DNA from: Candidatus Dojkabacteria bacterium
Lineage (GTDB): Bacteria > Patescibacteriota > Dojkabacteria > SC72 > JAHDCA01
NCBI GenBank assembly: GCA_030583845.1
Contig: CP129478.1
Span: 66,655-130,654 of the forward strand
DNA: 64,000 bases
Direction of reading: 5' to 3'
The notes under the pieces: model-generated
Seen by the model: the letters and a program-made list of their open reading frames with translations, nothing else
Databases searched by the model: none
What the model was told of the DNA's origin: nothing
In this document: piece by piece, positions 10,384 through 56,538 of the stretch
How positions within the stretch are numbered: the stretch's first letter is position 1
How the letters are laid out: each line of letters opens with the position of its first letter
Position numbers and translations under genes: made by a program

Positions 10384-11139
10384 AATAGCCTTCTGAAGCC
10401 TCTCGTTAACGTCCGCGAGTTTAATGAATTTCTCATTAAACTGCTCAACAGTTATATTAGATGAACTTAATGCTTCATCCACCAGAAATTCTCCTACCCG
10501 TGTCCGTCTTAGCTGTGTAGCTGTAGCCATGCTCCCAAGGCCCCTTGCAAGATCAACTATCAATGTACGTACATATGTCCCAGTCGAGACTACTACCTTA
10601 AATTCCACCACTGGCCAATTGTACTGTGTGAGTTCCCAAGAGGATACTTTGATTTTTCTTGCTTCAAGCTGGTGAATTTCTCCCTTTCGTGCATATTTGT
10701 ATGATGGTTTTCCCGATATCTTCTTAGCTGAGTAAGCAGGAGGGGTCTGCAAAAGCTCTCCGGTCATGCCTTCTATCGCTGACCGTATATAATCTACTGT
10801 TGCGACCTTATCATCCTCAAGCTTGGCGATTACCTCACCGGTAGGATCTTGAGTATCCGTCTCATAACCAAAGGTTGCCTCAACCAGATACTCCTTCTCA
10901 AGGGCATGCAGGGTATCGTTTAGCTTCGTGGCTTTGCCAAGCATCACGATTAGAAGACCGCTAGCAAAAGGGTCCAATGTACCAGCATGACCTATCTTGA
11001 GCTGCCTACGCTCACGACCCTCAAGCCCGTACTGTTCAAACAGCATCTTCTTAAGCCGCCTGATCACATCATACGAGCTAATGCCTATCTCTTTGTCTAT
11101 AAGCATCACTCCGTTTAGCGATTTAATGTCCTGATCCAT
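10372..11139 (-). CDS. truB: tRNA pseudouridine55 synthase TruB
   Basis: GHAGTLDP catalytic-Asp motif. Length 255 aa. 12-nt convergent overlap with the TatD-like gene. Confidence 0.9.
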   Translation of the reverse strand: MDQDIKSLNGVMLIDKEIGISSYDVIRRLKKMLFEQYGLEGRERRQLKIGHAGTLDPFASGLLIVMLGKATKLNDTLHALEKEYLVEATFGYETDTQDPTGEVIAKLEDDKVATVDYIRSAIEGMTGELLQTPPAYSAKKISGKPSYKYARKGEIHQLEARKIKVSSWELTQYNWPVVEFKVVVSTGTYVRTLIVDLARGLGSMATATQLRRTRVGEFLVDEALSSSNITVEQFNEKFIKLADVNERLQKAILPK

Positions 11140-40269: not shown

Positions 40270-40296
40270 ATCAAGCAAGTATAAAGTTCCTATCAA

Positions 40297-40929
40297 ATGG
40301 AGAATGACCATCAGCTAAAAGATATATTTGTAAGGCCAGCAAGGCAGATTGGGATTGTGGTCTTGGTCTGTGTAGTGCTGTTTGTTCTGCTTGCAATCCT
40401 CTCTTCGGCGAAGAATGCCCTGCTTGGGGACAGATCAACTGACAACGACCAGAACGAGCAATCAGACGAGCCTGCAGAGCCAGGCTTTGCAGGCCAGACA
40501 CTTACAACAGAGAGATTCTCACTTAAAGTGCCATTTGAAGATGGTAAGCTCAATTCATATCAGAGCAGCCTCCCAGTCGACGGTCACGATGAGCCGTACA
40601 GCTACTACGAGGTCGCTTCTCAGGCTGATCCCACTGCAAAAGTAATAGCTGTAGAGCATGAGAGCGATAAAGATCAAAGAACAGAGATAATCGAGCGAGG
40701 TGAAATGCTTTTCCCAAGCCTGGTGCAGGGCATGCCAGCTGTAACCGAACTCACAATCAATGAAGTGAAATATACGAAGGTCACATATGACCAGTGTAGC
40801 GAGGTAGACTGCATACAGGCGATGGAACGAAGCTACTACTACATGCGGCTTTACGAGGATACCGTCCTATACATGTATCTCGGAGAGTATGATACTGAGG
40901 TGCTTTCGACATTCCAGTTGAGCAACTAG
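40297..40929 (+). CDS. hypothetical protein with N-terminal TM
   Basis: 210 aa. Signal-anchor helix followed by a soluble acidic domain. Confidence 0.35.
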   Translation: MENDHQLKDIFVRPARQIGIVVLVCVVLFVLLAILSSAKNALLGDRSTDNDQNEQSDEPAEPGFAGQTLTTERFSLKVPFEDGKLNSYQSSLPVDGHDEPYSYYEVASQADPTAKVIAVEHESDKDQRTEIIERGEMLFPSLVQGMPAVTELTINEVKYTKVTYDQCSEVDCIQAMERSYYYMRLYEDTVLYMYLGEYDTEVLSTFQLSN

Positions 40930-40950
40930 TCCGGGCTACAGCTCCCTTGA

Positions 40951-42081
40951 TTACTGCTGAGAGTTATAGTAGTTGAGCCACCTCTTGTTAACACTTTCAA
41001 GTAGCTCTTCGTTTGTCATCCCTTTATGTATAGGATGCGGACAGACAGTACCATATTCCAATGCACACTGGTCATTCCAGTACTCGACTTCATACTCCAT
41101 ACGGTGCTCATACTCTTGACGACTCTCTAGATCGTCTGGTTCGTTGCCGAAGATAAAGTACTTCTCTGTCGTGTCGAATGATCCGATCAGGGCCGCAATC
41201 TTGTCTGACTCTCCCACCAAGGTCTCTTCAGTCGCTCTGATCGTATGTCTGAATTTCTGACCGTACTGATCTTCAATTGCATAGTCGATGACATATACGG
41301 TCTCTTCATCCGGCACGCCATCATCATCCAGCATCTCTAGATAGATATATAGTTTCTCAAATTTAGAATCCTCAACATTAATCACGCCGAGCATATAGAA
41401 ATCATTGCTTTCCCCCCATATCTTATTGGCTCTAGTCTGGATAAGTGATTGCTCGGTTACCCACTCTAAACTACGACCATAAAACGCATGGTATTTAAAG
41501 TATGTAATCTGAAAAGGTGGAGTCTCGGTAGAACCGGTTACTCCAAGGTCGGTGCGATACTGTACGAAGTTGTGATACTTGTTCATGTTGTTCTCGCATA
41601 GCTGACAGAAATACTCACTGCGCGCTATAACGCTTCCGAATGGTGCAGGTGCCATGCTCTTATCTACTAGATAGCTCATCCCATGCAGATTATAGTTCTC
41701 CTCAAGTCCATGATTTTCCGGGTAGGGTGCATCAAACAGATATACTGTCGGATATTTAAATCCGTATATCTCCTCAATATCTTCTACAGACTCTATCTCC
41801 GGTATGTCGAACTGATAATCCTTAAGAACCTCGTCCACATTGCTGAAATTAAGGAGTACGGGCTCGAGTACAGCGGATTCTATCGGAGACTTCTCCTCTA
41901 TAGGTGGCTCTTCCTCAACTGCCGGAGGTGGATCAACCTCTTCTAGTTGTGTCTCACTATTTAAGATATATATAGATGTTGCGGCTGAGGCACAGCAGCA
42001 GAGCATTAAGACCAGAAACAGTGCCGCGACCAGTGCTGGGATGAAGTACTTGTGCTGAGTAATGTTTTTCGTTGGTTCCAT
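40951..42081 (-). CDS. hypothetical protein with N-terminal TM
   Basis: 376 aa. N-terminal TM and an aromatic/acidic-rich extracytoplasmic region. Confidence 0.35.
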   Translation of the reverse strand: MEPTKNITQHKYFIPALVAALFLVLMLCCCASAATSIYILNSETQLEEVDPPPAVEEEPPIEEKSPIESAVLEPVLLNFSNVDEVLKDYQFDIPEIESVEDIEEIYGFKYPTVYLFDAPYPENHGLEENYNLHGMSYLVDKSMAPAPFGSVIARSEYFCQLCENNMNKYHNFVQYRTDLGVTGSTETPPFQITYFKYHAFYGRSLEWVTEQSLIQTRANKIWGESNDFYMLGVINVEDSKFEKLYIYLEMLDDDGVPDEETVYVIDYAIEDQYGQKFRHTIRATEETLVGESDKIAALIGSFDTTEKYFIFGNEPDDLESRQEYEHRMEYEVEYWNDQCALEYGTVCPHPIHKGMTNEELLESVNKRWLNYYNSQQ

Positions 42082-42132
42082 GGGGAATTATATCACTACA
42101 GATTCGTACCGCAATACAATAATTAGTGAAAG

Positions 42133-42810
42133 CTACTTCTTCTTCAGCAACAAAACTGCCCCAATGCCCACCAATATCACTGGCCAGATATCGCCGAAGT
42201 CAAACCATCCGAGTAATCCCATATTCTCAAGCCAGAAATAGCATCCCAGGAATACAGCGATGAGACCGAAAACAGTTCGTGCATTGCCCTGCTTGCTACC
42301 CTCTTTGACTGATTCCCAGATATCGTTGCCTTTGCTTACAACATCTGCGGTATTCTTGCGGATCGATTCTTCATTGATCATCTCTGAGCTAGATACACCA
42401 GCGACACCATCATCTTCAGGGATCAAGATCCAGAGCGCGATATAGAGGAATACACCTGCGCCACCTGCCATTGTGAGTGCGATGAAGGCGAGTCGTACCA
42501 GGATAGGGTCGACCTCGATATACTCGGCTATACCTGCACAAACACCGCCAATGATTGAATCGGAGCTGCGGTGGAGGCGCTTGGTCGAGGTAAATTGGAC
42601 CTTGGGAATGCCTTCTTCTTTGGTCGGTCGCTCGGGCTTAGGGGCTGGCTCGGACTTGGGAGCTGGGTCGGCTGCGGGCTGCTGTGGAATCTCCGTTACG
42701 GTCGCCGCTACATTCTCGGCTGCTTTAACATTCTTGGCTGCATTCTCAACGCCTGATTTTGCTTTTGAAGGTTTGATTTTACCTTTGCTTTTCTTAGAGG
42801 TAGTTGCCAT
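42133..42810 (-). CDS. PspC-domain membrane protein
   Basis: PspC domain (SSDSIIGGVCAGIAEYIEVDPILVRLAFIAL) plus additional TM helices. Confidence 0.6.
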   Translation of the reverse strand: MATTSKKSKGKIKPSKAKSGVENAAKNVKAAENVAATVTEIPQQPAADPAPKSEPAPKPERPTKEEGIPKVQFTSTKRLHRSSDSIIGGVCAGIAEYIEVDPILVRLAFIALTMAGGAGVFLYIALWILIPEDDGVAGVSSSEMINEESIRKNTADVVSKGNDIWESVKEGSKQGNARTVFGLIAVFLGCYFWLENMGLLGWFDFGDIWPVILVGIGAVLLLKKK

Positions 42811-42847
42811 ATCTGTTTAATATTTGCAGGTTAGCTAATAGGTGGGG

Positions 42848-43147
42848 CTATTTCTTGCCGTTGTCACCCTTAAGACCCTTCTCAACACCCTTCATCACCT
42901 CGTTGGCTTTCTCTGCCATCTCGTTTGCACCTGTGGAAACTGTGTCACTGCCTGACTTAGCTGTATCAAGAGGGAGGATTAGCCAGAGGATGAGGTAGAT
43001 CCAGAAGGTAGCACCCATGAAGAATGCTGCAACGATGAATAGTACTCGTACAAGCATTGGATCGAGTCCGAAGTATGCTCCTAGTCCGCCGCAGACGCCT
43101 GCGATTACTTTATCTGATGAGGAGCGTGTAAGTCTTTTCTCTGCCAT
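42848..43147 (-). CDS. PspC-domain protein (short)
   Basis: PspC domain (SSSDKVIAGVCGGLGAYFGLDPMLVRVLFIVAA). Lies in tandem with the upstream PspC-domain gene. Confidence 0.6.
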   Translation of the reverse strand: MAEKRLTRSSSDKVIAGVCGGLGAYFGLDPMLVRVLFIVAAFFMGATFWIYLILWLILPLDTAKSGSDTVSTGANEMAEKANEVMKGVEKGLKGDNGKK

Positions 43148-43233
43148 TTTGTGATGGTAATAATTTATGTATATGTATGGTATATGTTAGCACAGTGGGG
43201 GAGGTTTGAGTACTGGCTTAAGTTGACGCTGCT

Positions 43234-43950
43234 TTAATGGAGCGTTTGAGTTCCTGCCATCCTGAAAGCTGACTCAAAGTGATCTCCAAATGGAAAAATC
43301 TTGACGCTGATTAGACCCATTCTCGACCTTGTCAGATCTTCAACTATTCCCTCTGGCTTTGAAAGGTTAGCCTTGGAGATAAAGTGTAGTGCCTGTTTGG
43401 TGTTAAACAGATGCATAAAGAGTCTGCGGGTCATAGCAATGTACAGCTCTTCTTCGGCCTCCTCTTCTTCTCCGATAAACTCCCATGCTATATTGTAACG
43501 AGAAAGTTTGACTGAGGCCGTCTTTAACAGTCGTCTCTGAGCCTCCTGCGCTGTCATACACTCACCTCGCGATTTCGCCTTATCTTTAGCATTAATGTAG
43601 CCATGAACAAGTGCTCCATCTACGAGTTCATAGCACTCCTCATAAAAGCAGCTCAGAGTAGCTCTAAACTGGTCAAATAGATCAAAAGGGGTACGTTCTT
43701 CAATACCTGTCTGACGCAAATTATCGTGATCAATAAAATCTCTAACAAACTTTGCCATACCAATTATACGATTAGATTCTCCTGCGTACTCCATACTTCC
43801 ATAGGATTCTTGGATAATAAGCCCCAACAGTCCCATCGATGCCGCGAGGCTCATTCCTGGCTTCTCTGTTTGCTCTTGTCTGTGTTCTAGCCAGCCCACT
43901 AGGGTGGGAGAGATTGTTTTTAGTTCAGGTTTCGTAAGCGTTTTATCCAT
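43234..43950 (-). CDS. hypothetical protein
   Basis: 238-aa soluble ORF at the left border of the R-M island with no motif recognised. Confidence 0.3.
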   Translation of the reverse strand: MDKTLTKPELKTISPTLVGWLEHRQEQTEKPGMSLAASMGLLGLIIQESYGSMEYAGESNRIIGMAKFVRDFIDHDNLRQTGIEERTPFDLFDQFRATLSCFYEECYELVDGALVHGYINAKDKAKSRGECMTAQEAQRRLLKTASVKLSRYNIAWEFIGEEEEAEEELYIAMTRRLFMHLFNTKQALHFISKANLSKPEGIVEDLTRSRMGLISVKIFPFGDHFESAFRMAGTQTLH

Positions 43951-44052
43951 GCGGGATTATACCGCTAGTAATAACATAACGCTATAGGGTTGCGACATAT
44001 TAAGAAGTAAATGAGGCAACGCTGATGTTTCCGTTTAACTGGCGTAGAAGGC

Positions 44053-44127
44053 TATACCCAGCTGGCCTCAGTCTCCAGAAAGATTATAGAGCAACTCAAG
44101 TTGAAAGATTTCACCGCTGGGTATAAT
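44053..44127 (+). promoter_or_regulatory. candidate autoregulatory operator and promoter of the HTH-methyltransferase
   Basis: 10-bp inverted repeat TATACCCAGC (44053-44062) / GCTGGGTATA (44116-44125). The downstream copy overlaps the GGGTATAAT -10 (44122-44127). A CCAGCTGG palindrome is also present at 44057-44064. Confidence 0.45.
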
Positions 44128-44149
44128 ATATCACTAAATTGAAACCGTT

Positions 44150-45364
44150 ATGTATTTATCACAGAAATTACAACAAGAGAGAGAATTTAAAGGTCTAACT
44201 CAAAGAGAGCTTGCCGACTTATCTGGGGTAAATTACTCAACAATTACCAAGCTTGAGAGCGGTGTGTATCAAAATCCTACTCTCGATACCATTATGAAAA
44301 TAAGTAGCGCCCTTGAGATAAAGATTGAAAGTCTCTTACAACCGCGGAAAGAATTTGGAATGCCTTCTAACACAATGATTGAATCCCACGCTGAAGTCAA
44401 AGGTGTAAAATTTACCTTTATTGACCTCTTCGCAGGTATTGGAGGAATTAGAATTGCCTTTGAGAGGCAAGGCGGGCGCTCTTTGTTTTCTTCTGAAATT
44501 GATAAGTATGCGGTTAAAACCTACCAAGCTAACTACGGTGAGACGCCTGCTGGCGATATTACCCAAATTGATGCCACAAATATACCTGATCACGATATTT
44601 TACTAGCAGGATTTCCATGCCAACCTTTTTCAATCGCTGGAGTTTCAAAAAGGCAGAGTTTGGGCAGGGGTCACGGTTTCTTTGATGAAACAAAGGGAAC
44701 ATTATTTTTCGACATCGCAAGAATTATTGAAGTGAAGAGGCCTAAAATCGTGTTTCTCGAAAATGTGAAGAACCTTATGTCACATGATAAAGGAAGGACT
44801 TTCGAAGTAATAATCAACACACTAAAAGAGCTTGATTACATACCATACTATAAAGTTAATGACGGACAGCATTTTGTCCCACAGCACAGGGAAAGAACAA
44901 TTATTGTAGCTTTTGATAATAAAGTATTTAAAGGCAAAGAGAATTTTGAATTTCCAGAGCTACCTAAAAAAGAAGTGAGGCTCTCAGATATTCTTGAAAA
45001 AGAGGTTGACCCTAAATATACACTTACTGATAAACTGTGGGAGTATCTTCAAAACTATGCGAAAAAACATAAAGAAAAGGGTAATGGATTTGGTTATGGG
45101 CTTGCTGATTTTAATGGAATCACTAGAACCTTAAGTGCTAGGTATTACAAAGATGGATCAGAGATTCTTATCCCTCAGGAAGGTAAAAACCCAAGAAGGC
45201 TTACCCCAAGAGAATGTGCAAGACTTCAAGGTTTCCCTGAGGATTTCATAATTCCTGTTTCCGATACACAAGCATATAAGCAGTTCGGAAATGCTGTAGT
45301 TGTTCCTTTAATGGAGTACTTAGCTAATTCAGTTGTTAAATCATTAGGATATGTTAGAAAATAA
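44150..45364 (+). CDS. DNA (cytosine-5)-methyltransferase with an N-terminal XRE-type HTH regulatory domain (M.EcoRII/M.SsoII-like)
   Basis: N-terminal HTH ([23 protein letters not shown]). C5-MTase motifs [50 protein letters not shown] and [10 protein letters not shown]. Confidence 0.9.
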
Positions 45365-46529
45365 TTTTGCAGGTCAGGCAATTGAGGCTGTTAAAAGAGG
45401 TTCTGTAGCTTTCTCGAAATTTATAACTTCAAACGATGCTGGAGTAACTGGAGGTCATCAAAGTGGATTCCATCTACATAAGAACTCATACCCTCTTTTT
45501 TTTGAGACTCAAGGAGTCAAAGGTGAAAATAGTGAAAAATTTGCAAAGATAAAATGGCAGGGAGATTTTGAAACAGACAGCAGGTTTATCTACTATGGGG
45601 TCGGTACAAGAGATGAATACAGACTTACAAGGTTCGGCAAAGGATTTCCGTTTTTAACAGAGGAAAGCGTTGGAAACCTTCTTATTCTTACTAAACAGAC
45701 AGATGAGTACTACGAGGCGTTTGTACTTTCAAGTGATGATGAGATAGAAACCTTCTTCAGTGCATTCGGCATAAGTCCACAGGAAACAAATAAAATCATT
45801 CCTAAAACAAATACTGTAAGTGTTGAAGATCAGCTTATGAAGATGTTTGAGGCTTACATAGGTACTATCAGCGTTGATTTCCCTCTTACAACCGAGATTG
45901 CAGATAATGCTAGGAAAATAATTATGCAGGTTTCTGGAATATCTACAATTGATGTCAAATCTAATCCAGATAAGGAGCTTTTGAGATGGCTTGATACAGA
46001 GTATAAGTTATTTAAAACTATTGAGAATAATAGATATTCAAACATCATAGGGCAACCTTTTAAGGATGTAGATTCTTTCATACAAACAGCGAACAGCATT
46101 TTAAATAGAAGAAAAAGTAGAGCTGGAAAGTCACTTGAGCATCACCTTTCAAATATGTTTACAACTTTTGATTTGAAATTCAGTGAGCAGACTGTAACAG
46201 AAGAGCACAAAAAGCCTGATTTCATCTTCCCAAGCCCGGAAGCATATCACAATTTTTTATTTGATCAGAATAAGCTTGTTTTTCTTGCAGCGAAAACAAC
46301 ATGCAAAGACAGATGGAGACAGATCTTGAATGAAGCTGACAGAATCAAAGTAAAACATTTATTTACATTACAGCAGGGAATATCTTCCAATCAGATGAAA
46401 GAAATGACGCGCTACAATGTTAAACTTGTTGTTCCAAAAGAATATATAAACACTTATCCTAAGGAGTACAGAGAAGGAATTTATTCGCTTGGTCAGTTTG
46501 TAAGATACGTCGATGCAACTCAAAAATAG
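45351..46529 (+). CDS. EcoRII-family type IIE restriction endonuclease (likely CCWGG-type specificity)
   Basis: Overlaps the MTase end by 14 nt. The N-terminal effector domain ([18 protein letters not shown]) resembles the EcoRII-N B3-like domain. C-terminal catalytic-domain signatures [42 protein letters not shown] and HLFTLQQG match my recollection of EcoRII; this comparison is from memory and was not aligned. Confidence 0.7.
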
Positions 46530-46558
46530 TGACAGACAACTAACAAAGAGCCTAGAAT

Positions 46559-46645
46559 ATGTCTAGAGACACCTCGGTAAGACAGATTCTTGAAAATAAA
46601 GAATGGAAAGTGATCTATATATGGGAATGTAAAATGAGAACCGGA
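46559..46645 (+). pseudogene. vsr: remnant of very-short-patch repair endonuclease gene vsr (C-terminal about 27 codons only)
   Basis: Translation RDTSVRQILENKEWKVIYIWECKMRTG matches the Vsr C-terminus (...RDRRVNEALEAQGWRVLIVWECALRG). In-frame stops lie immediately upstream. Only 29 nt separate the REase stop from this fragment, so about 120 N-terminal codons are missing. Confidence 0.6.
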
Positions 46646-46693
46646 CATAATATTTTCAAAATTTTACGAATACAAGATCTTGCTGATAGCAAG

Positions 46694-47914
46694 CTAATCA
46701 GGTGGCTCTTGGATATGTGCTTGAAAATAGATTATCTCGTTGACCAAGTTTTTCTGCGTATACTTCATTTCTTGGTATTTGTAGTAATCATTGAAGTACC
46801 CACTTAGGCTTGCGAGTTGCCTGCTGAATCTTCCAAGAAATGCTGTTACGCCTTCTAAAGTGAAATCAACAGAGTCAATGCCATCACCTAGGTCATCTAA
46901 CATCTTTCTGCAAACAAAGTATCGACCAAAATCCGTACTATTACCACGCAGCTTCGGTTTTGTTATTAAAAGTGGTTCATAGATGGGCTTGTAGATGTCG
47001 AGTTCCATTTCTTCGCTCATGTTCTGCGTAGCTTGGTGCAACCTTATTGCCCTTGTAATCGTATCATTTGATCTTGGCTCCAATACTAAAAGCTGGCTAT
47101 AGGCATATTTTATTACTGAAGAGACGACGGTCCCACTATACTTCTTCAAAGGCATATCTTTATCTTTTTTCCAATCTAGAAGTGTTGATAACACTACGCC
47201 CCAAAATATATAACGACCATATTCACACTGTAGGCAACTGTTGGGTGTTTCTGATAAAACTTCTTTCGAGATTACAAAGAGATAGAAAGAAACAACTTCA
47301 GACATGAGTGCTCCTTGTGAGATATCATGCAGTAACTCTCTATCACATTCTGCTACATTCCTTATACAGTTCGTTGCAATGCTTTGTGCGATACTCTTGC
47401 TGTTGTCTTCAAGTTTTCGTGGTCTTTCATAATCATTAACCCAAGTAAGATCGAGCCACTTTGATAAACAGATAAAACCGTTAAGAAGATGATTTATACC
47501 TTTAGTATTACCATGTACAACCACCTCATATAAAGACTCCGTGATTTTATCCATTCTACCTCGCCTAGAGTTAATCCAAATTTCCAACGGGGACAATCTG
47601 ACGCCAAACGGCACTAAGGCATTATACACAAGCAAGTTAGTTGCGATATCAAAGGTGTATGGGCCACCTGCATTAATTTCGTGAGAACGTATTTCACATA
47701 GGTAGCTATGAGGCATCCTTTTCAATACTCTACCAATAACAGAGACATACAATGAAAAATCTTTGAGGGTTAATAGTTGCGGCGTGTCAGCATTACCAAA
47801 AAAGCTATCTATTAATCGATTCGCCAGAAAATAATCCCCTTCCAACTCAGTTTCGCCCACAAGTGCAAGGGTAATTATTCGCCAATTCTCACATTCAGCG
47901 TCTAAAACTGCCAA
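46694..47914 (-). CDS. hypothetical 406-aa protein adjacent to the R-M module (possible defence-associated, HEPN/Abi-like?)
   Basis: AT-rich like the R-M genes. Soluble protein with a single Rx4H match (RAIRLH). No confident family assignment. Confidence 0.4.
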   Translation of the reverse strand: MAVLDAECENWRIITLALVGETELEGDYFLANRLIDSFFGNADTPQLLTLKDFSLYVSVIGRVLKRMPHSYLCEIRSHEINAGGPYTFDIATNLLVYNALVPFGVRLSPLEIWINSRRGRMDKITESLYEVVVHGNTKGINHLLNGFICLSKWLDLTWVNDYERPRKLEDNSKSIAQSIATNCIRNVAECDRELLHDISQGALMSEVVSFYLFVISKEVLSETPNSCLQCEYGRYIFWGVVLSTLLDWKKDKDMPLKKYSGTVVSSVIKYAYSQLLVLEPRSNDTITRAIRLHQATQNMSEEMELDIYKPIYEPLLITKPKLRGNSTDFGRYFVCRKMLDDLGDGIDSVDFTLEGVTAFLGRFSRQLASLSGYFNDYYKYQEMKYTQKNLVNEIIYFQAHIQEPPD

Positions 47915-48057
47915 GGATACTTCTTAGCCATCAATATTCTTAAAAACCTTCTAGGATTTAACAATTTCCTTCTTGTTTGCGGATACAACAAAAAACCCTC
48001 AATGTATGAACTGTGCATACTTGTAAATCTGCAAAGTTAAATCAGTACATTACATCA

Positions 48058-49290
48058 TTAAGCCAAGTGCTCGTCAACCCTCCCCCTCCTAAATCTCCTA
48101 CCAATCCACCCAAACCACCCCCTACGCACCATCAAGAACACACTAAACACCAATCCCACCGCACTCAGCCCCAAGAGTACAGTCCATAGCCTTACATTTA
48201 CCTCGCTACCATTCACCACCTTCAAGTCATCAGTCTCTAGCCCCTTATTCGTTACCTCATCCTCATCTACCTCATCACCCTCATCAGTTATCACTCCACC
48301 CAAGTCTGCAGGGTCTATCCCTTCAGGGATCTCTTCCTCTTCGACAGTAGGCTCATCCCGGGTCGCAGCTGGAGCGGCAGGAGTATCAGCCTGACCAAGC
48401 ATGGCAGCTGTTACAGCGACAGAGGCGTCACCTGTGCTTTTCACCTCGGCATGGCCGAAAGCATCTTCTGTGACTACCATCAGGGCATATGTGCCAACGG
48501 TAAGGCTGGCATCACTTACGTCGAGCGTCTTGCTACATGTACCGCTGCGGGTTGCATCTGCTGTCCCTGCACTAATCCACTGGTTGTTGGCGAAATATCT
48601 AAATGAGCAAACCCGGTCTTCCAGATAGTTGGCATTGCTCGGCTCAGTTACTGTACCTGTCATCTGGATCTTCCAATCGGGGTTGTCGGCACCGTTGGCA
48701 TTGGTGATCTGGGCGGTCAGAGTGCTGCGGGGTGCCTCACCATCTACGGTGATTGTGTTGAGTGTCTGGCCATTGATGAGCGGGGAGCTTGTTGGGTCAT
48801 ATACCCAGAACCTGACACTGTATGTAGCAACAGGGTCGAGTAGTGTGCGGTTAATATTGTTGGTACAGGAGTAGCTCAGCATGGTTGGGTCATCTTCATC
48901 TGGGACACCCGCGGAAAGTGTGCCGTTGTACTGTCCTGTCTCACCGCTTCCCCAGTTAAATGACACCTTGCATGTGGCAATGGTTGCATCACTCTCAAAT
49001 GTGATAACCGAGGTGAAGACATCGTTTACATACATTGTGGAGCCGTCAACCTTGTTTGGCGTGTATGCAGAGGTCTTAACTGTCGTGGCGGCATATGCGG
49101 GGCTGCTGGAGACGAAAGAGAGTATGGCTACGATAACTATGGCGAGGAAGGGGATGAGTAGGTGTCTTTTGCGTCCGACCACTTGTCGGCGATACGGTAG
49201 AAGGAAAGGCTTTTGCTTTGAGCCAACTGGTCGGACTGGATTCTCAATGTCTCGACGTTGTGGCTCTTTATCTGTATGAGTTGTTTTCAT
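48058..49290 (-). CDS. cell-surface protein with N-terminal signal anchor, beta-rich Ig-like region, acidic linker and C-terminal TM anchor
   Basis: N-terminal TM (LIPFLAIVIVAILSFVSS). C-terminal acidic stretch (EEEEIPEGIDPADLGG...DEVDEDE) followed by a TM helix and an RRGRVDEHLA basic tail. Confidence 0.45.
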   Translation of the reverse strand: MKTTHTDKEPQRRDIENPVRPVGSKQKPFLLPYRRQVVGRKRHLLIPFLAIVIVAILSFVSSSPAYAATTVKTSAYTPNKVDGSTMYVNDVFTSVITFESDATIATCKVSFNWGSGETGQYNGTLSAGVPDEDDPTMLSYSCTNNINRTLLDPVATYSVRFWVYDPTSSPLINGQTLNTITVDGEAPRSTLTAQITNANGADNPDWKIQMTGTVTEPSNANYLEDRVCSFRYFANNQWISAGTADATRSGTCSKTLDVSDASLTVGTYALMVVTEDAFGHAEVKSTGDASVAVTAAMLGQADTPAAPAATRDEPTVEEEEIPEGIDPADLGGVITDEGDEVDEDEVTNKGLETDDLKVVNGSEVNVRLWTVLLGLSAVGLVFSVFLMVRRGWFGWIGRRFRRGRVDEHLA

Positions 49291-49333
49291 TGCAGATATA
49301 ATATAGCAGAGGCGGGGTGGGTTGTGAAATGGG

Positions 49334-49756
49334 CTATCTTGATCCTCTTTGGTTTTGTATATGCTCGAGAAGCATCTCGTTCATTATTGTTTGAATCTGG
49401 AAAGGCGTGAGGTCGATCATTTGAGGATTGCACAGTACACGCTCGACTTTGCTTCCCATCGCGTAAATGATCACATACAACTCATCCTGTTGTGCGTTCA
49501 GTACTCTATATAGCCTTACAGCAGATAGAGAAGAGTCGTTCTCGTACTGTGGCATCATTTCGGCATTGTCTGGCCTAAGCGTATATCTTGTCCATCCAAA
49601 TGTGTCTGGTCCAATAGCAAACCCACCCCAGCTATCTGGCCTTTCTGTTTTTAGTATTGTATGTATGCCTTCGTACTGAGCTTCTCTATCACGGAAATGC
49701 TCGTCAACGTGTCCGTAAAGTTCTTCAGTACTCATCTGGCCATAACTATTTATCAT
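49334..49756 (-). CDS. hypothetical small acidic protein, possible paralogue family member A
   Basis: 140 aa. Shares E-x-L-x-x-x-YG...F N-terminal and hydrophobic YVIIY core patterns with the ORFs at 49789 and 52267. Confidence 0.35.
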   Translation of the reverse strand: MINSYGQMSTEELYGHVDEHFRDREAQYEGIHTILKTERPDSWGGFAIGPDTFGWTRYTLRPDNAEMMPQYENDSSLSAVRLYRVLNAQQDELYVIIYAMGSKVERVLCNPQMIDLTPFQIQTIMNEMLLEHIQNQRGSR

Positions 49757-49788
49757 GGCTTGATTTATACTATAAGTCTATTGCAGAT

Positions 49789-50256
49789 TCAACCACGTAC
49801 ACCTCGCCATCTCGGATCATCACCGTTTCGTCGCATACCCTGTGCATACTCAAACATTAGCCTGTGGCACACTCGAACAACCGTTTGATTAGCGAGATAG
49901 TGAGAAGAGAAGCTCAAGATTACTTCCCACCTACGATCCAACGCGCCAGCAGTTACGTACGCCAGCTCTTTGCCCACTTCTTGATACAGCAAGAAATAGC
50001 CCATGCTTTCGCGTCGATCAAACTCCCTGAGAACCTCCGGTACCTCCCAAGTGAGACCCATGTTATCGGGCTCAATCTCTTCACAATAATATATGCGGTA
50101 TCGCTCTGTCCGACCGCCCAGTTCCAAGTCTTTGTATGATAGCTGATATATCTCGGTTGAGGCATAATTCCAAGGCAGCTCGCGCTCTCCCACTCTGAGT
50201 GGAAATTGCATTTCCGATCTATCACCGTAGTAGCGATGGCTCCCGTTTTCGCCCAT
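49789..50256 (-). CDS. hypothetical small protein, paralogue family member B
   Basis: 155 aa. Shares SEMQFPL...PW and MGYFLLYQ segments with the ORF at 52267 (SERFPL...PW; QGYFLLYR). Confidence 0.4.
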   Translation of the reverse strand: MGENGSHRYYGDRSEMQFPLRVGERELPWNYASTEIYQLSYKDLELGGRTERYRIYYCEEIEPDNMGLTWEVPEVLREFDRRESMGYFLLYQEVGKELAYVTAGALDRRWEVILSFSSHYLANQTVVRVCHRLMFEYAQGMRRNGDDPRWRGVRG

Positions 50257-50302
50257 GCTTATATTGTATGTAGTGAAGGATTATGGTTGAGTAAAGTGAA
50301 AT

Positions 50303-50680
50303 CTAGAACTGTATCTCATCAAAACTTAGATACTGGATAGCTTCATGATGCTTGAGAGCTGATGCATATGCATATTGGGAACGTTGTCTGAATTCATCAG
50401 ACAGGGGGGCCGTTATACTATGCCCATCAAGTCCACAGCCGGACAAGTTCGGGACAAATATGTCGAGTAATCTAACCTTACCGTTATCAAGTAGAAGATG
50501 CACATATACCTTATTACAACCTTCGTACAGATATGGCGATAACTCATCTATCCCAACCGTATCGCCATTGAGCGACGTATAACAAGCGAGAACACACCCT
50601 TCGCCTTCATGTACAATCTCGGTTTCACATCCATCTCTTTCTAGCCCTTTAGTTGTATCGCCACCAAACTCCGACATCAT
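50303..50680 (-). CDS. hypothetical small Cys-containing protein, possible paralogue family member C
   Basis: 125 aa with a KVYVHLLLDNGK hydrophobic core segment. Confidence 0.3.
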   Translation of the reverse strand: MMSEFGGDTTKGLERDGCETEIVHEGEGCVLACYTSLNGDTVGIDELSPYLYEGCNKVYVHLLLDNGKVRLLDIFVPNLSGCGLDGHSITAPLSDEFRQRSQYAYASALKHHEAIQYLSFDEIQF

Positions 50681-50808
50681 TTGTCACTAGGAATAATTTA
50701 ACTATTTGCATACCCCATAGTCTCTATCTGTAAATAATCGGAGATGTTCCATCTCCATTACATACCCATTACACGCTCAAAATATCAATCCTGTATAATT
50801 TACCGAGT

Positions 50809-51504
50809 ATGAAACTAAACTACACCCTCAAACGAGAAAAACGCCGCTCCCTTACTATCCGCATCACCGAAAACGCCGACGTCATTGTCAAAGCACCTCA
50901 CCGCCTCCCACAGCAGCAGATCGACCAATTCCTAGAGGAGAAATCCGGCTGGATAAGCAAGAAGCTTGCTCTACAGCAGCGCCGCAGCGGAGAACGCCCT
51001 GCGCACAGATTTAATGAGGGTGAAAAATTCGAGTATCTCGGCGAGACTTACAGCCTGCAAATAATCCCTCCAAGCGCAGTCACCAAATATGGGCTCACAC
51101 TAAGAGAGCCGCTAGACCTGCACCAAGACTTCATCCTCCATGCCGAGAAGCAGCCGAAAGCGCGCGAGGCATTCACAAAATGGTACAAGAGTGAAGCACG
51201 TACAATTCTGGCCGATAGAGTAGGGCATTTCTGCGACCTAGCCGGGCTTAGGCACCAATCGATCAAGCTCTCAAATGCCAAGACTCGCTGGGGCTCATGC
51301 AGCAGCAAGGGCAATCTAAACTTCAACTGGCGTATCATAATGGCTCCGATGGAGGTAGTAGACTATCTGGTCGCCCACGAGGTAGCGCATCTAAGGCATC
51401 AGAATCATTCGAAGAGCTTCTGGAATTTGGTGGGGGAGATCTATCCGGATTATAAGCAGCATCGGAGGTGGCTGAAGGAGAATGGGCATAGGCTGGAGAT
51501 CTAA
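50809..51504 (+). CDS. YgjP/DUF45-family (WLM/M48-like) zinc metallopeptidase
   Basis: C-terminal WGSCSSKGNLNFNWRIIMAPMEVVDYLVAHEVAHLRHQNHSKSFW, the HExxH signature of the family. Confidence 0.75.
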   Translation: MKLNYTLKREKRRSLTIRITENADVIVKAPHRLPQQQIDQFLEEKSGWISKKLALQQRRSGERPAHRFNEGEKFEYLGETYSLQIIPPSAVTKYGLTLREPLDLHQDFILHAEKQPKAREAFTKWYKSEARTILADRVGHFCDLAGLRHQSIKLSNAKTRWGSCSSKGNLNFNWRIIMAPMEVVDYLVAHEVAHLRHQNHSKSFWNLVGEIYPDYKQHRRWLKENGHRLEI

Positions 51505-51508
51505 TCGC

Positions 51509-52108
51509 CTAACAGTAGCCCTTAATGGCTGGGTGAAGAATACTATACCAATTGGTTTCTCCAGTTCCCCTCTGTTTTGAGCTTCCACGAGGTACTCTCC
51601 CTCTAAAGTTCAAACCCTGAATAGGGTGCCCCACAGGAGTAACTGCAGCTGTGCTCAAAGTTCCATGTCCGTAGTTCATGCCACTGACCAGCTCTTCTAG
51701 CGTAGCGACAGCATCTACTACATCAGGATTAAAGTATCTTATGCCAGGCATACCCTTACACGCATATACATAGGCCCGCTTCTGGCCTTTGGATCTAGGT
51801 AATTCAACCACATGAAATGCCTCGGCAGAACAAAGACCAAAGGCATTTGGGGCTATAAAATAGATGCACTCTCGGTAATCAATCTCGGTATAGAGTACCG
51901 GTGGAATTGTATACCTATCATTATGATAAAAGTCCCACTCAATTTCATATGCATTTCGCTGTGTCAACAATGCTAATAGAGTGGTAGATTCATCCATCCC
52001 TTTTTGGAATAGTGGTAGGGACTTCTCGATTACCCCCTTATACTCATAACTGATTACAGTTCGTATATTCGGCTTTGGATTGTGTGTGTGTTCCAGGTCG
52101 GTGCTCAT
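51509..52108 (-). CDS. hypothetical protein, possible paralogue family member D
   Basis: 199 aa with the aromatic-rich pattern (WDFYHNDRYTIPPVLYTEIDYRECIYFIAPNAFG). Confidence 0.3.
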   Translation of the reverse strand: MSTDLEHTHNPKPNIRTVISYEYKGVIEKSLPLFQKGMDESTTLLALLTQRNAYEIEWDFYHNDRYTIPPVLYTEIDYRECIYFIAPNAFGLCSAEAFHVVELPRSKGQKRAYVYACKGMPGIRYFNPDVVDAVATLEELVSGMNYGHGTLSTAAVTPVGHPIQGLNFRGRVPRGSSKQRGTGETNWYSILHPAIKGYC

Positions 52109-52266
52109 ACTCGTTTAGCAGGATGGAGACAATTGGACTTCCATAACCCACTACCTTAAGACTATTTCATATTGCGAAGCAAAGTGGGCAGCCTAGAGTT
52201 TATACATATAGGGATTATACACTACTTGTAGTTTGCATTAGATGCAACGAAATTACATTGAGAACA

Positions 52267-52887
52267 TTACTCCGCTTCAACAGGCCAGTTCAATTTCATA
52301 AACCAGCTATTAAATATCTCTTTCGAGACAATTAGCCTACTGTTGTACTCCCCGAAGTCGAAGATCCTGCCAGTAAACCGACTTGGCTTGAGGTTCCCAG
52401 CGAGTATTTCTATACCCTCGTCACTTGCGACGCTTTCATACAATTTACCGAAGCTAGCCACAGGATCTACATCGATAGATGACAGTAACACTGGTGCTCT
52501 GAATTCATAATTCCGATACAGCAGGAAGTAGCCTTGATCAGTAACAACCAGCATCGCCATATTCCTATTTGTGTCCATTACTCCGTAGCATGCATTCTGA
52601 GCTGTACCGAACTTCCCATCCTGTTCAAGCCCTGTAAACCCAGTAAAGATTATAACCCTTGATTTTTCAATCATCTCAAGAGATTCATTTCCATTTTCAT
52701 ACTCCATAATCATCTCCTCCATCAAGGGAACAACTGCCGAGTAGTATGCTGTTTCTCCATCATTATGCTTGACCCATGGTGCACGATTGAATTCTTCCAT
52801 GTACAGCTCGAGGGGAAATCGCTCACTCTTCTCTCCGTACTCAACTGCCAGGTTTTCTAATCTCTCACTACTTGGTCCACCCATCAC
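52267..52887 (-). CDS. hypothetical protein translationally coupled to mutS, paralogue family member E
   Basis: 206 aa. Its start overlaps the mutS stop (ATGA). Segments SERFPLELY...APW and DQGYFLLYRNYEF are shared with the ORF at 49789. Confidence 0.4.
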   Translation of the reverse strand: MMGGPSSERLENLAVEYGEKSERFPLELYMEEFNRAPWVKHNDGETAYYSAVVPLMEEMIMEYENGNESLEMIEKSRVIIFTGFTGLEQDGKFGTAQNACYGVMDTNRNMAMLVVTDQGYFLLYRNYEFRAPVLLSSIDVDPVASFGKLYESVASDEGIEILAGNLKPSRFTGRIFDFGEYNSRLIVSKEIFNSWFMKLNWPVEAE

Positions 52888-55514
52888 TCAAACCTCCTCT
52901 TCAACTCCACCAGCTTATTCAGCGCCTCCACCGGCGTCATCCCATCTAGATCCAGCCCTTTCAACTCATTAATAAGCTCCGACTCCTGCGCAGAGAAGAA
53001 TGATAATTGATCAATGCTAGCTGCTTTGCTCGATTTCCCCTTAGTCGCTGCTGCTATCTGCTCATCATCAGACTCGCCCTTGCCATTTGATAGAGTAGAG
53101 AGGATCTCATTCGCTCGCGTTACCACCTCCTCAGGCAATCCAGCCAGCTGCGCTACATAGATGCCGTAGCTCCGATCAGTACCACCCTCGACGATCTTCC
53201 GCATGAAAGTTACTTCGCCTTTCTCCTCATCCTCGCTCACCATCACATTGTAGTTGCGGACAAATTCAGGGTGCTCGGCTGCCAGCTTCAGCAGCTCGTG
53301 ATAATGGGTAGCAAACAGTGTGCGAGCCTTGACTCGACTCACAAGATACTCGGAGAGAGCCCATGCAATGCTTACACCATCGTAGGTGCTTGTACCTCGA
53401 CCCACCTCATCCAGTATCACCAGGCTGTTTTCGGTCGCATTATTCAATATATTTGCCGCTTCCTCCATCTCCACCATAAATGTGCTCCGTCCCTGGCTCA
53501 GATTGTCTGAAGCACCTACTCGTGAGAACACACGATCGACCAGCGAGATCTCAGCATCATTTGCTGGCACGAATGAGCCGATCTGCGCCATCAAGACGAT
53601 AAGTGCGATCTGACGGATATAGGTTGATTTACCCGACATATTGGGGCCGGTGATGATGGCCATGCGATTGCCCATGATTGTCACATCGACATCGTTTGAT
53701 ACAAACTCATCATCTGAGATCTTCTCGACTACAGGGTGGCGGCCACCTGCTATCTTTAAAACTCCGTCGCGCACACCAAAATCATGCATGATAGGCTTGA
53801 TGTAAAGATTTGACCGCGCAATATTTGCAAACCCGGCCAGGACATCAAGCTTGCCAGTCTCATGAGATAGCTGCTTGATCGCTGTGAGGTAGGGGAGCAG
53901 CTCTTCCCGCAGCTCTTGGAAGATATTGTACTCGAGCTTGAAAAGCCTCTCCTCAGCGCCAAGGATCACCTCTTCTTTCTTCTTCAGCTCATCGGTAATG
54001 AAGCGCTCGCAATTTACCAAAGTCTGCTTGCGGATATAGTAGCCGGGGACTTTATCAATATGCGCATTAGTGACTTCTATGTAGTAGCCAAAAACCTTGT
54101 TGAATCCGATCTTGAGCGATGGGATGCCGGTCTTCGCTTTCTCGACCTCAACCATCTCTTGGACCCACTCGTTTTTCTGGCCTGAGTTGCTGCTGCCAGC
54201 CAGTGATCTTAATTCATCTACCTCTGGGCTGTAACCGGCTTTGACAATTCCACCCTCACTTATCGTAGTAGGTGGTGAATCCGAGATTGTAGAGTCAAGG
54301 CGGGTGATCAGGCTATTTATTGGGAGTTTTTCGTCGGAGAAGAGCTGGGCGAATTTAAATTTCTCAAGCAGCTCGCTATGCTCTGCTAATCTATCAGATA
54401 TTTGCAGCATATTTTGCAATGAAAGCTGCAACCCTTTCAAGTCGCGCGCTGAGGCTCTGTTTAGACCGACTTTGCCGACAATTCGCTCTGTGTCGCTTAC
54501 TTCAGATAGAAGCTTGCGGATTTCATTAAGTAGCTCAAAGTCATTGTGAAAATACTCGACAACTTCATGCCTTTCATTAATTTCATGAAGATTAAGCAGC
54601 GGATTAATTACCCAAGAGTAGAGCATACGCCTGCCCATGACAGTACGAGTGTCATCGAGCACCTCAAGCAGTGTGTCGTGAGATTGCCCAGTGTAGGAGT
54701 TCTGCACCAGGTCGAGGTTGCGGATTGTCGCTCGATCAAGAACCATCGTGCCCTGAGTCGAGAAGTATTGCGGTCTGCTGATATGCTCTGGGTTCATTTT
54801 CTGCGTATCCAAGATATAGCTGATAAGCATGGAAGCAGCTCTGGCCGCTAACTTATAGTCCGCTATAAAAAGCGAATCCAAGCTTTTCGCTTTATAGAAT
54901 TCTTTGAGCGTCTTCTCAGCGGCGGCTGGCTTGCTCTCTGCAGCGCTGATAAGCTGCACAGGGATTTCATTAAATTTTAATGAAGTCTCGGAGTCCGGAA
55001 GCAAAATCTCTACAGGGTCGTGCGCCGCAATTAATGAATTTAATGAATCCCGACTCAGCGGAATCTCAGTAATCTTAAATTCACCAGTTGAGAGATCTGC
55101 AAATGCAACGCCGATCTTTTCCTTATCCTGCACGACAGCCATCACATATGGATTTTTGCGCGAATCGGCCAGATCGCCATCAAGCGTACCTGGCGTGACT
55201 ACTCGAGTGACACCTCTTTTAACTACTCCCTTGGCCAGCTTAGGATCCTCAAGCTGATCAACAACAACAGCGCTGTGGCCTGATTTGATGATCTTGGGCA
55301 GATATTGATCAAGCGCATGGTGTGGGAAACCGGCAAGTGGGGTAGGGTCGGTAGCTTTGTCGCGGGTAGTTAATGTGATATTTAATACTTTAGAGGCCAG
55401 CTTGGCATCATCGCCAAATGTCTCATAGAAATCACCCATCCGAAACAGCACAATCTTGTCAGGATATTGCCTCTTGACGCCTAAATATTGTTCCATCATG
55501 GGGGTCTTTTTCAT
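52884..55514 (-). CDS. mutS: DNA mismatch repair protein MutS
   Basis: N-terminal mismatch-binding domain (MEQYLGVKRQYPDKIVLFRMGDFYETFGDDA). Walker A GPNMSGKST and an ABC signature. Length 876 aa. Confidence 0.9.
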   Translation of the reverse strand: MKKTPMMEQYLGVKRQYPDKIVLFRMGDFYETFGDDAKLASKVLNITLTTRDKATDPTPLAGFPHHALDQYLPKIIKSGHSAVVVDQLEDPKLAKGVVKRGVTRVVTPGTLDGDLADSRKNPYVMAVVQDKEKIGVAFADLSTGEFKITEIPLSRDSLNSLIAAHDPVEILLPDSETSLKFNEIPVQLISAAESKPAAAEKTLKEFYKAKSLDSLFIADYKLAARAASMLISYILDTQKMNPEHISRPQYFSTQGTMVLDRATIRNLDLVQNSYTGQSHDTLLEVLDDTRTVMGRRMLYSWVINPLLNLHEINERHEVVEYFHNDFELLNEIRKLLSEVSDTERIVGKVGLNRASARDLKGLQLSLQNMLQISDRLAEHSELLEKFKFAQLFSDEKLPINSLITRLDSTISDSPPTTISEGGIVKAGYSPEVDELRSLAGSSNSGQKNEWVQEMVEVEKAKTGIPSLKIGFNKVFGYYIEVTNAHIDKVPGYYIRKQTLVNCERFITDELKKKEEVILGAEERLFKLEYNIFQELREELLPYLTAIKQLSHETGKLDVLAGFANIARSNLYIKPIMHDFGVRDGVLKIAGGRHPVVEKISDDEFVSNDVDVTIMGNRMAIITGPNMSGKSTYIRQIALIVLMAQIGSFVPANDAEISLVDRVFSRVGASDNLSQGRSTFMVEMEEAANILNNATENSLVILDEVGRGTSTYDGVSIAWALSEYLVSRVKARTLFATHYHELLKLAAEHPEFVRNYNVMVSEDEEKGEVTFMRKIVEGGTDRSYGIYVAQLAGLPEEVVTRANEILSTLSNGKGESDDEQIAAATKGKSSKAASIDQLSFFSAQESELINELKGLDLDGMTPVEALNKLVELKRRFE
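54845..54861. repeat. solo copy of the 17-mer CCGCTAACTTATAGTCC inside the mutS coding sequence
   Basis: Identical to the left arm at 29092-29108. On the minus strand it encodes DYKLAA within MutS. No inverted partner is found nearby. Confidence 0.6.
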
Positions 55515-55516
55515 GT

Positions 55517-55936
55517 TTGGAGTATAACATATGGGCTGCCGCAGTGGCTTCGTTGGGGTACACGGATGTAATTATTTGCACACAAGAGTATGCCTCATCT
55601 AAAATTACAAGTGGGGCAAGAAGCTATCGTGATAATCAAGGGAAGTATGGTTTCTATCCAGAGCATGAAGATGATGTCTACTCGTATGCAGTTACAGCAT
55701 TTGAGCTGATACTCGGAAGGCTACCTATGAATCTGGATCCTGACTCAGATAGATTTGAAGTCATGATGCACTATCAAAATGCCGAAGCGCGGCTATCTGT
55801 AATTGATAGGCTTGGGTTGAGCCCGGCAGTAGCTAGTCGTGTTCGTGAAGTATTCATGCGAGCGTTTGAGAATTTTGGATATTCATCGGCTGGCGCATTT
55901 CTTCAAGACTTCAAGCTGGCATATTCCCACAACTAG
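55517..55936 (+). pseudogene. Ser/Thr protein-kinase C-lobe fragment (N-lobe and catalytic loop missing)
   Basis: DDVYSYAVTAFELILGRLP and the downstream helices match kinase subdomains IX-XI. No Gly-loop, HRD or DFG motifs are present, and the ORF starts 3 nt from the divergent mutS start. Confidence 0.4.
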
Positions 55937-55971
55937 ACTGAACGTTTATGAGCCGTAGACTGTTTACAGCT

Positions 55972-56538
55972 CTACGATAGACCAAACAGCGGATCACCAG
56001 AGTAATCCTTTTTGAGATTTCCCTCCAACTGTTCCAGATCCAGACGATTAGGATAGAACAATCTTGCGACTCTAGCTCCTTTTGGTACGAAATTGATGCC
56101 TACGTCCATGACATTATGCTGCGGCACTATACCTTTGTAATCAGTACCCTTAAGAGCAAGTCCAAATTGATCTCTTTCATACACAACCTGTATTTGTGTG
56201 AGCTCGTCAAGAGCCTCAACTACAACTACTTTGTAGATGTCATACGGGTAAAAGTATAAACGGCATTCCTGCATACTCGGCGTATCGTGTTCGCCCCTGA
56301 ATAGGGTAAGCTCTGTGTGCTGATTACCGCCCGCCTCCATAGTAGCCATCTGTAATCCCCAATCGTCTGCTATATGTAACTCATTCTCTCGAGTCACCAG
56401 AGACTCACCATTGTAGATCAGAATTTCTGTGTATACGATTGTTGCCATATTTACTCCTCTGCGCAATTGATTAATTCTACGTTTAGAGCACGACCATATT
56501 ATACTATGGGTTCTGCAACAATTCCATGACAAAAACAA
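55972..56538 (-). CDS. hypothetical protein
   Basis: 188-aa ORF. The likely start is at the internal Met (MATIVYTEILIYNG..., near 56449). Confidence 0.3.
   Translation of the reverse strand: MFLSWNCCRTHSIIWSCSKRRINQLRRGVNMATIVYTEILIYNGESLVTRENELHIADDWGLQMATMEAGGNQHTELTLFRGEHDTPSMQECRLYFYPYDIYKVVVVEALDELTQIQVVYERDQFGLALKGTDYKGIVPQHNVMDVGINFVPKGARVARLFYPNRLDLEQLEGNLKKDYSGDPLFGLS

Follow-up and report, generated by a model that had tools for sequence, protein, structure and literature searches.

The closest described analogue of the locus considered here is the polymorphic mutS-rpoS (o454-nlpD) region, with its mosaic mutS alleles, of Escherichia coli and its relatives (PMC4209514). Our locus lies in a 64,000-nucleotide stretch of a Candidatus Dojkabacteria genome (GenBank assembly GCA_030583845.1, contig CP129478.1, positions 66,655 to 130,654), which we call the window, and it consists of five small open reading frames (ORFs), designated A to E, that follow mutS and surround a gene for a YgjP-like/DUF45 zinc metallopeptidase. 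As in E. coli, the gene content directly downstream of mutS varies among close relatives by gain and loss, and the mutS gene of the window lineage carries a patch that resembles the product of recombination. Unlike the E. coli region, the window belongs to a different phylum, contains no rpoS, has small orphan genes around DUF45, and can be compared among three or four genomes only.

Clusters of ORFan genes occur in variable regions of bacterial genomes and are common in genomes of the candidate phyla radiation (CPR). Like the members of such clusters, A to E are short, free of known domains, confined to a narrow lineage, native in base composition and placed between conserved anchors; unlike them, two members can be traced here, E, which evolves fast and is kept beside DUF45, and A, which is being deleted in a sister lineage. 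We suggest, with a probability of about 0.6, that the locus is a zone of gene turnover that has formed around DUF45 and mutS, a conserved pair in convergent orientation; the small soluble proteins encoded there would be unrelated to one another and restricted to this lineage. The pair would be the conserved core in one sub-lineage of the Dojkabacteria, with variable flanks; small ORFs would be gained, eroded and replaced there on a genus time-scale, so that each relative would carry a different set.

The five ORFs make up a tandem array that occupies 3.55 kb of the minus strand and is interrupted by DUF45. ORF A (52267..52887) encodes 205 or 206 amino acids depending on its start, with an isoelectric point (pI) of 4.5; B (51509..52108) encodes 199 (pI 7.0), C (50303..50680) 125 (pI 4.5, five cysteines), D (49789..50256) 155 (pI 5.5) and E (49334..49756) 140 (pI 4.9). 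Four of the five products are thus acidic (pI 4.5-5.5), and none has a transmembrane (TM) segment. The conserved anchors are DUF45 on the plus strand (50809..51504, 231 amino acids) and mutS on the minus strand (52884..55514, 876 amino acids, with all five MutS Pfam domains). ORF A and the NCBI protein QY318_00600 (Candidatus Dojkabacteria, Patescibacteria/CPR) are 100% identical. Samples SRR24881069 and DRR859400 carry the strain. The sequence from A to E is identical in two further metagenome samples, and a dN/dS comparison between strains (nonsynonymous against synonymous change) was dropped for that lack of polymorphism. The first-pass annotation, made from the letters of the window, had placed five domain-free minus-strand ORFs at these coordinates and with these sizes, around a divergently oriented YgjP/DUF45 gene, and in this it was right: the ORF listing agrees, A to E match nothing at E<=0.01 in Pfam, NCBIfam, PADLOC or PHROGs, and the DUF45 gene is a full-length PF01863 member (2.7e-63).

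The evidence for turnover comes from the relatives. The closest, L083 and L084, were found through DUF45. A MutS scan of the genome collection returned only relatives whose MutS is 53% identical or less, and a metagenome scan with DUF45 only relatives whose DUF45 is 42% identical or less. L083 is a genus-level relative represented by a 148-kb contig that is collinear with the window, and its housekeeping proteins, the PEP-utilising enzyme included, are 78-80% identical to those of the window (MutS 79%, PBP 80%, HisRS 79%). Its gene order is HisRS, a 229-amino-acid ORF, a 212-amino-acid TM protein, two PspC genes, a 66-amino-acid fragment, a 130-amino-acid ORF and DUF45, then mutS, a Y1 transposase (IS200/IS605) and the PEP-utilising enzyme, with DUF45 and mutS convergent and 100 bp apart. 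L083 is without B, C and D, and also without the surface-protein gene, the 406-amino-acid ORF, the restriction-modification (R-M) pair and the 238- and 376-amino-acid ORFs of the window. Its 130-amino-acid ORF is homologous to E (26% identity over 102 amino acids, pairwise E-value 8e-9, shuffle P 3.6e-8), which alone among the five has full-length homologues.

The second relative, L084, is a 4.2-kb contig whose DUF45 is 63% identical to that of the window (65% for L083). Six small acidic orphan ORFs (79-168 amino acids, pI 4.1-5.8) occupy its positions 1-3129, divergent from DUF45; one of them, at 2192-2668, is E-like (Smith-Waterman P 3.6e-5) and is the only one of the six related to a window ORF, and a different orphan at 3914-4222 is convergent to DUF45. 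The ORFs of L084 have no Pfam match and no similarity to A to D. Two candidate homologies were rejected here: the 79-amino-acid ORF that stands at the position of C (Smith-Waterman P 0.004) gave nothing in composition-adjusted BLASTP, and the ORF downstream of DUF45 shows no similarity to A or B. In a third relative, L245, DUF45 is 49% identical and again convergent to mutS, the 3′ end of which lies 40 bp from it. No counterpart of B was found in L083, L084 or L245, and B, C and D have no counterpart in any relative. E is kept beside DUF45 in three genomes at 26-33% identity, versus 78-80% for housekeeping proteins.

Farther out, five other Dojkabacteria (L001-L005; MutS 53% identical) share the order PEP-utilising enzyme, mutS, winged-helix gene, (HisRS), PBP, and none of them has a homologue of A to E. 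The gene convergent to mutS in these five genomes encodes 200-230 amino acids with a C-terminus (...GFGYYISI / GYGYYLAI) that resembles, by eye only, an OmpR-type winged helix; the gene overlaps or abuts the mutS stop codon, and has no counterpart in the window. Gene content adjoining mutS thus differs among the window, L083, L084, L245 and L001-L005. From synteny with L083 and L001-L005 and from a dip in guanine-plus-cytosine (GC) content at 44-48 kb, we place the putative turnover zone between HisRS and mutS (40270..52883, assigned to neither strand). Its conserved anchors are a 210-amino-acid TM protein, two PspC genes, E and DUF45; the window-specific genes are the 376- and 238-amino-acid ORFs, a Dcm and EcoRII pair, the 406-amino-acid ORF, the surface-protein gene, and D, C, B and A.

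The mutS gene itself shows variation of another kind. A 9.8-kb contig (L082, from DRR859400) equals the window except for 42 substitutions in 680 bp of mutS (53508-54186, about 6%), of which 34 are synonymous and the other eight change five codons; the patch looks like either recombination, that is, a mosaic mutS, or an assembly chimera from a mixture of strains. On the other side of mutS, between it and the gene for the PEP-utilising enzyme, lie two lineage-specific ORFs, G and F (55517-56538), at a spot that is taken by the Y1 transposase in L083 and is merely a 40-bp spacer in other relatives. ORF G (55517-55936, TTG start, 139 amino acids) bears a weak likeness to the C-lobe of Ser/Thr kinases, with the motif DVYSYAVTAFELILGRLP (Pkinase E-value 0.077), and is probably a gene fragment.

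The first-pass annotation had read the five ORFs as a locally expanded paralogous family, on the strength of two motif segments common to A and D and of an aromatic-rich hydrophobic core in the others, and had proposed a candidate new module associated with MutS or with defence, DUF45 included. Several features invite such a reading: the ORFs are neighbours on one strand and similar in size and composition, two lineages show an overlap of A or its relic with the stop of mutS, HsdR genes are frequent beside DUF45 homologues, and an R-M pair lies 3 kb away. Both motifs are indeed present and collinear in A and D, but their significance is weak. Smith-Waterman scores judged against shuffles gave P about 0.06 for A-D, about 0.075 for D-E and at least 0.1 for all remaining pairs. 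A chaining alignment of collinear segments, built to favour the two-motif observation on A-D, scored 93 versus 69+-9, a value that was reached in 12 of 1000 shuffles (P about 0.012, uncorrected). No pair among A to E survives correction for ten comparisons by either method. The GYFLLY segment of A and D rests on a DNA match of 17 of 19 nucleotides, of a type that is frequent by chance in this region.

Other comparisons agree. All-against-all BLASTP of the ORFs gave a best E-value of about 0.3 in a database of eight sequences, phmmer scored A against D at 0.7 bits and found zero paralogues of A to E among all ORFs of the 64 kb, a hidden Markov model (HMM) of the E family matched neither A to D nor anything else under HMMER, and hhalign of the E-family profile with A to D returned probabilities of 0.3% at most. 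The aromatic core is no sign of a family either, because A to E share their aromatic content of 10-14% with small ORFs to which they are unrelated, both in the neighbourhood and in a relative. A to E do not, then, form a paralogous family detectable at the sequence level, and the expansion that had been proposed is not supported. The linkage to MutS fares no better: among 160 mutS or DUF45 loci (80 of each) there is no homologue of A to D, the 80 mutS loci include the five Dojkabacteria that carry the winged-helix gene instead, and the 80 distant DUF45 loci hold no homologue of A to F and a mutS-like gene nearby in one case only. L083, moreover, has lost nearly all of A and does without B, C, D and the R-M pair. 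We regard a paralogous MutS- or defence-linked module as highly improbable. These results are largely those that the first-pass annotation had itself named as telling against its proposal, namely alignments at chance level and no conserved linkage, apart from the E homologues beside DUF45 in two relatives and the truncated relic of A in one.

That A to E are coding genes we take as observed, with a certainty that differs among them. Six ORFs of at least 120 amino acids tile 88.6% of 49291-52887, whereas 500 shuffled sequences averaged 0.27 ORFs of that length and a coverage of 3% (maximum 37%). When codon usage was scored as log-odds in all six frames, with 20 long window genes as the training set, the annotated frame came out best for each of A to E; the scores are 0.195 for A, 0.142 for D, 0.125 for E, 0.071 for B and 0.001 for C, the weakest coding signal of the five, against 0.278+-0.07 for housekeeping genes and -0.08+-0.11 (maximum 0.12) for shadow ORFs. 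The GC content of A to E is native (43-50%), as is their codon usage, unlike those of the neighbouring R-M insert. It could be argued that some or all of these frames are non-functional, having arisen de novo or decaying without selection: B, C and D have no homologue at all, B and C score low, A is mostly deleted in L083, and the neighbouring G resembles a fragment of a kinase gene. We consider this unlikely. Six long ORFs over 89% of the region are far beyond chance, the right frame is the best of six everywhere, the spacing between the -10 box and the ATG of D and E is that of conserved genes, and protein-level conservation of E and of the tail of A extends across lineages.

The interrupting gene is a full-length DUF45 family member. 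It matches PF01863 with 214.2 bits against a cut-off of 26, over profile positions 1-207 of 207, and its HExxH motif, HEVAH at residues 190-194, has H190, E191 and H194 invariant in the three closest relatives. NCBI names such homologues 'SprT family zinc-dependent metalloprotease' or 'M48 family metallopeptidase'. The first-pass annotation had described the family as known from type I R-M and other conflict loci, and for type I R-M the distant homologues support it: around 80 distant DUF45 loci, HsdR-type domains are the commonest neighbours (among 90 flanking ORFs, T1RH-like_C 10, T1R_D3 8, SWI2_SNF2 7, ResIII 7 and HSDR_N 5). A literature search for DUF45 together with R-M was discarded, having returned only DUF450, a false match. 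In the closest metagenomic locus, L085 (DUF45 42% identical), an Imm68 immunity protein is encoded directly upstream of DUF45 and co-directional with it, at 5231-5740 (Pfam 1e-36), and the same arrangement is seen at 211-717 of L086.

Unlike the distant homologues beside HsdR, the window DUF45 has no type I R-M partner and is convergent to mutS; no type I R-M domain was found among genes called within 10 kb of it. Relatives that are without the R-M pair of the window have DUF45 beside mutS, with 49-65% identity, and in three relatives that have no R-M at all the two genes are convergent. Comparison of these loci indicates that DUF45 is a conserved chromosomal gene of the sub-lineage, as opposed to the centre of a mobile conflict island. 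The R-M pair itself (44150-46529, 36-38% GC versus about 45% elsewhere) belongs to a low-GC insert at 44150-47914 (36-39%) that encodes a helix-turn-helix-fused Dcm-type C5 methylase, an EcoRII-like endonuclease with an overlapping start and an uncharacterised 406-amino-acid ORF; L083 lacks the insert but keeps DUF45, and the pair and the 406-amino-acid ORF look like a separate, recent acquisition. PADLOC-DB gave zero matches for A to E or DUF45, and only weak ones for the flanking ORFs G (PD-T4-6, E-value 0.0025) and F. The earlier picture of an accessory, conflict-type neighbourhood is accordingly correct in part, the neighbourhood being accessory and variable with a real R-M pair, and DUF45 being no part of an R-M or defence system; a defence-associated module finds no support in PADLOC, nor in the closest relative, where the R-M insert is missing.

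The search for homologues of A to E was broad. Neither word-index searches of 5.8 billion proteins, for which A and D served as queries, nor an exhaustive HMMER scan of 1.84 billion representatives, run on A to E concatenated, returned anything but self matches and one marginal match, P0006; a PDB sequence search returned nothing for A to E. We class A to D as orphans. P0006 is a metagenomic tail-fibre-like protein with a Peptidase_S74 chaperone domain, and residues 68-133 of A align without gaps to its repeat (GFTPVQQSGG...VTDQGVFLL) at 38% identity, with an E-value of 2.5e-5 summed over two repeats. When the repeat profile was iterated from 80 viral loci and grown to 188 repeats, the score of A fell from 28.6 to 15.7, 12.0 and 8.9 bits with the broader profile, ending at the level of shuffled A, and A does not match the PHROG profiles that the repeat matches. 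We rejected the tail-fibre homology as probably due to chance.

The likeness to P0006 is one of the few hints that a prophage or another mobile element could once have inserted downstream of mutS and left the cluster behind. Others are that DUF45 matches one PHROG family (3e-8, the sole PHROGs match among A to E and DUF45), that small orphans are typical of phages, and that a Y1 transposase of the IS200/IS605 type lies across mutS in L083. We give this idea hardly any credence. The called genes include no integrase, the window contains no tRNA, and no direct repeats flank the cluster; the GC content and codon usage of A to E are native, the P0006 score decays as described, and DUF45 is a chromosomal gene whose place beside mutS is conserved. 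Chromosomal integrons offer a further comparison, with their arrays of same-strand, small, mostly orphan ORFs. Integron cassettes are normally promoterless. Here D and E have promoters of their own, no IntI integrase is found, no inverted repeat recurs between the spacers of A to E, and those spacers, at 32-46 bp, are too short for attC, on which grounds we set an integron cassette array aside.

The array does not appear to be expressed as a unit. As a -10 element we scored TAnn[AT]T where the hexamer ended 4-12 nt upstream of the ATG; it is present at 22 of 55 window genes (40%) versus a background of 7.7%; a Shine-Dalgarno-like motif is present at 3 of the 55 versus a background of 8.4%. This genome seems to rely largely on leaderless mRNAs. 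The leaderless-type pattern is seen at mutS (TATACT, 55526-55521), DUF45 (TATAAT, 50794-50799), the surface-protein gene (49305-49300), D (TACAAT, 50268-50263) and E (TATAAA, 49769-49764), with a distance from box to ATG of 6-9 nt for D, E, DUF45 and mutS (6 nt for mutS and D). The separate -10 boxes of these four genes argue that the array is not one operon, and D and E are each probably transcribed independently, which would give leaderless mRNAs of their own. No -10 box lies near the ATG of B, the nearest TATAAT being at 52219-52214, and B may be carried on the mutS-A transcript or be made with a leader of roughly 100 nt; the spacer or leader between A and B is unstructured (fold z -0.64) and belongs to no Rfam family, and an Rfam scan found no RNA elements. 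B and DUF45 converge, their stop codons (51504-51509) being separated by 4 nt without a terminator. On the minus strand a terminator-like hairpin (50739-50757) is next reached beyond the start of DUF45, so that any read-through from mutS, A and B would be antisense to all of DUF45. Terminator-like sites are not enriched in general (6 versus 6.1 in shuffles).

ORF A is the only member of the array that overlaps the mutS stop codon. The junction reads GAG TGA TGG: within GTGATG (52882..52887, minus strand) the mutS TGA occupies 52886-52884, the ATG of A (52884-52882) shares 1 nt with it (TGATG), and an alternative GTG start (52887-52885) shares 4 nt (GTGA). NCBI and Logan gene calls take the ATG, for a protein of 205 amino acids. 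The overlap that the first-pass annotation had reported is thus real, its sequence being TGATG or GTGA and not ATGA. A has no promoter of its own. An AGGAGG lies 8 nt before its ATG, and we rejected it as a selected Shine-Dalgarno sequence: the same codons end mutS in L083, and such sequences are hardly used genome-wide. Since A lacks a promoter and AGGAGG is ancestral mutS coding sequence, termination-reinitiation at TGATG on the mutS mRNA is the best reading of how A would be made.

What has become of A in L083 can be seen in the 100-bp spacer between mutS and DUF45. At 10722-10799 of that contig, on the minus strand, there is a mini-ORF of 25 codons, MTGEHKGYVLTSSEIFSEWLMRRDL, whose ATG overlaps the mutS stop as ATGA and which aligns without gaps to residues 179-201 of A (GEYNSRLIVSKEIFNSWFMKLNW), that is, to 23 residues of its C-terminus. 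The Smith-Waterman score is 52 versus 24.8+-3.3 for shuffles, reached in none of 2000 (Gumbel P 1.6e-5), and B to E compared with the same spacer are at chance level. The two sequences share 30 of 69 nucleotides, divided by codon position as 10, 14 and 6 of 23, a pattern that is the signature of protein-level constraint on the tail of A, and the conserved core is EIF..W.M[KR]. The alignment shows, as far as the reconstruction from two lineages reaches, that A already overlapped mutS in the common ancestor with L083 and was later mostly deleted there; expansion of a short ancestral ORF in the window lineage would be less parsimonious. In whichever direction the change ran, A is dispensable on a genus time-scale. 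The mini-ORF may be a deletion relic or a micro-protein that is still expressed.

Persistence of this C-terminal peptide at the mutS stop after truncation to 25 codons would suit A as a lineage-specific MutS partner. One can build a larger proposal around it, in which the DUF45/mutS flanks are a site of gene birth and death, A is a partner of MutS, and E is a substrate, inhibitor or immunity partner of DUF45. We think this very doubtful; were it true, it would represent an undescribed small-protein system in the CPR, linked to repair or to conflict.

The immunity loci of polymorphic toxin systems deserve mention in this context, for polyimmunity loci are described as strain-variable tandem arrays (PMC3482391). 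Our array is like them in that tandem, heterogeneous, small, soluble, acidic proteins vary between strains, and unlike them in having no immunity-family match, no toxin gene and no cassette repeats. On the corresponding explanation the array would be variable because its cassettes, immunity-like or anti-defence-like in kind, are exchanged among strains at a hotspot that has E and DUF45 as anchors; their products would neutralise toxins or defence nucleases. The proteins are aromatic-rich and differ among close relatives, E evolves very fast (26% identity versus 79% for neighbouring housekeeping genes), R-M and surface-protein genes lie in the neighbourhood, and Imm68 (1e-36) stands directly upstream of DUF45 in one distant locus. 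Yet no Imm, SUKH or other Pfam family was found among the small ORFs of the window, L083 or L084, no toxin domain among the called neighbours of A to E and no boundary repeat at the array, and Imm68 accounts for just one of the 90 flanking ORFs. We judge such an array improbable.

Returning to the turnover zone that we favour, several points weigh against it. The close relatives number three, two of them short contigs, and the direction of gain and loss is only partly resolved. The functional status of B and C is less certain than that of the others, as their codon scores (0.071 and 0.001) fall within the range of shadow ORFs. A and D, the best of the ten pairs, may descend from a very old duplication. 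Single-sequence AlphaFold2 gave pLDDT values of 38.1 for A and 41.8 for E, too low for usable models, and in a fold search models of such low confidence give meaningless matches. Finally, no family match points to the functional class of A to E, which is offered with low confidence: they could be dispensable, strain-level accessory binding proteins, of an immunity-, inhibitor- or anti-defence-like kind, and not enzymes or MutS cofactors.

If the turnover reading is correct, a false lead has been removed, and there is here neither a new paralogous family nor a module linked to MutS or defence. What the locus would offer in its place is a small, clean example of gene turnover in a reduced CPR genome, in which mutS, DUF45 and PspC serve as anchors among changing orphans, one orphan (A) is seen half-deleted, and another (E) is evolving about three times faster than its neighbours. 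The leaderless-type promoters from which this genome appears to start most of its genes, with almost no use of Shine-Dalgarno sequences, matter for gene calling in genomes of this kind.

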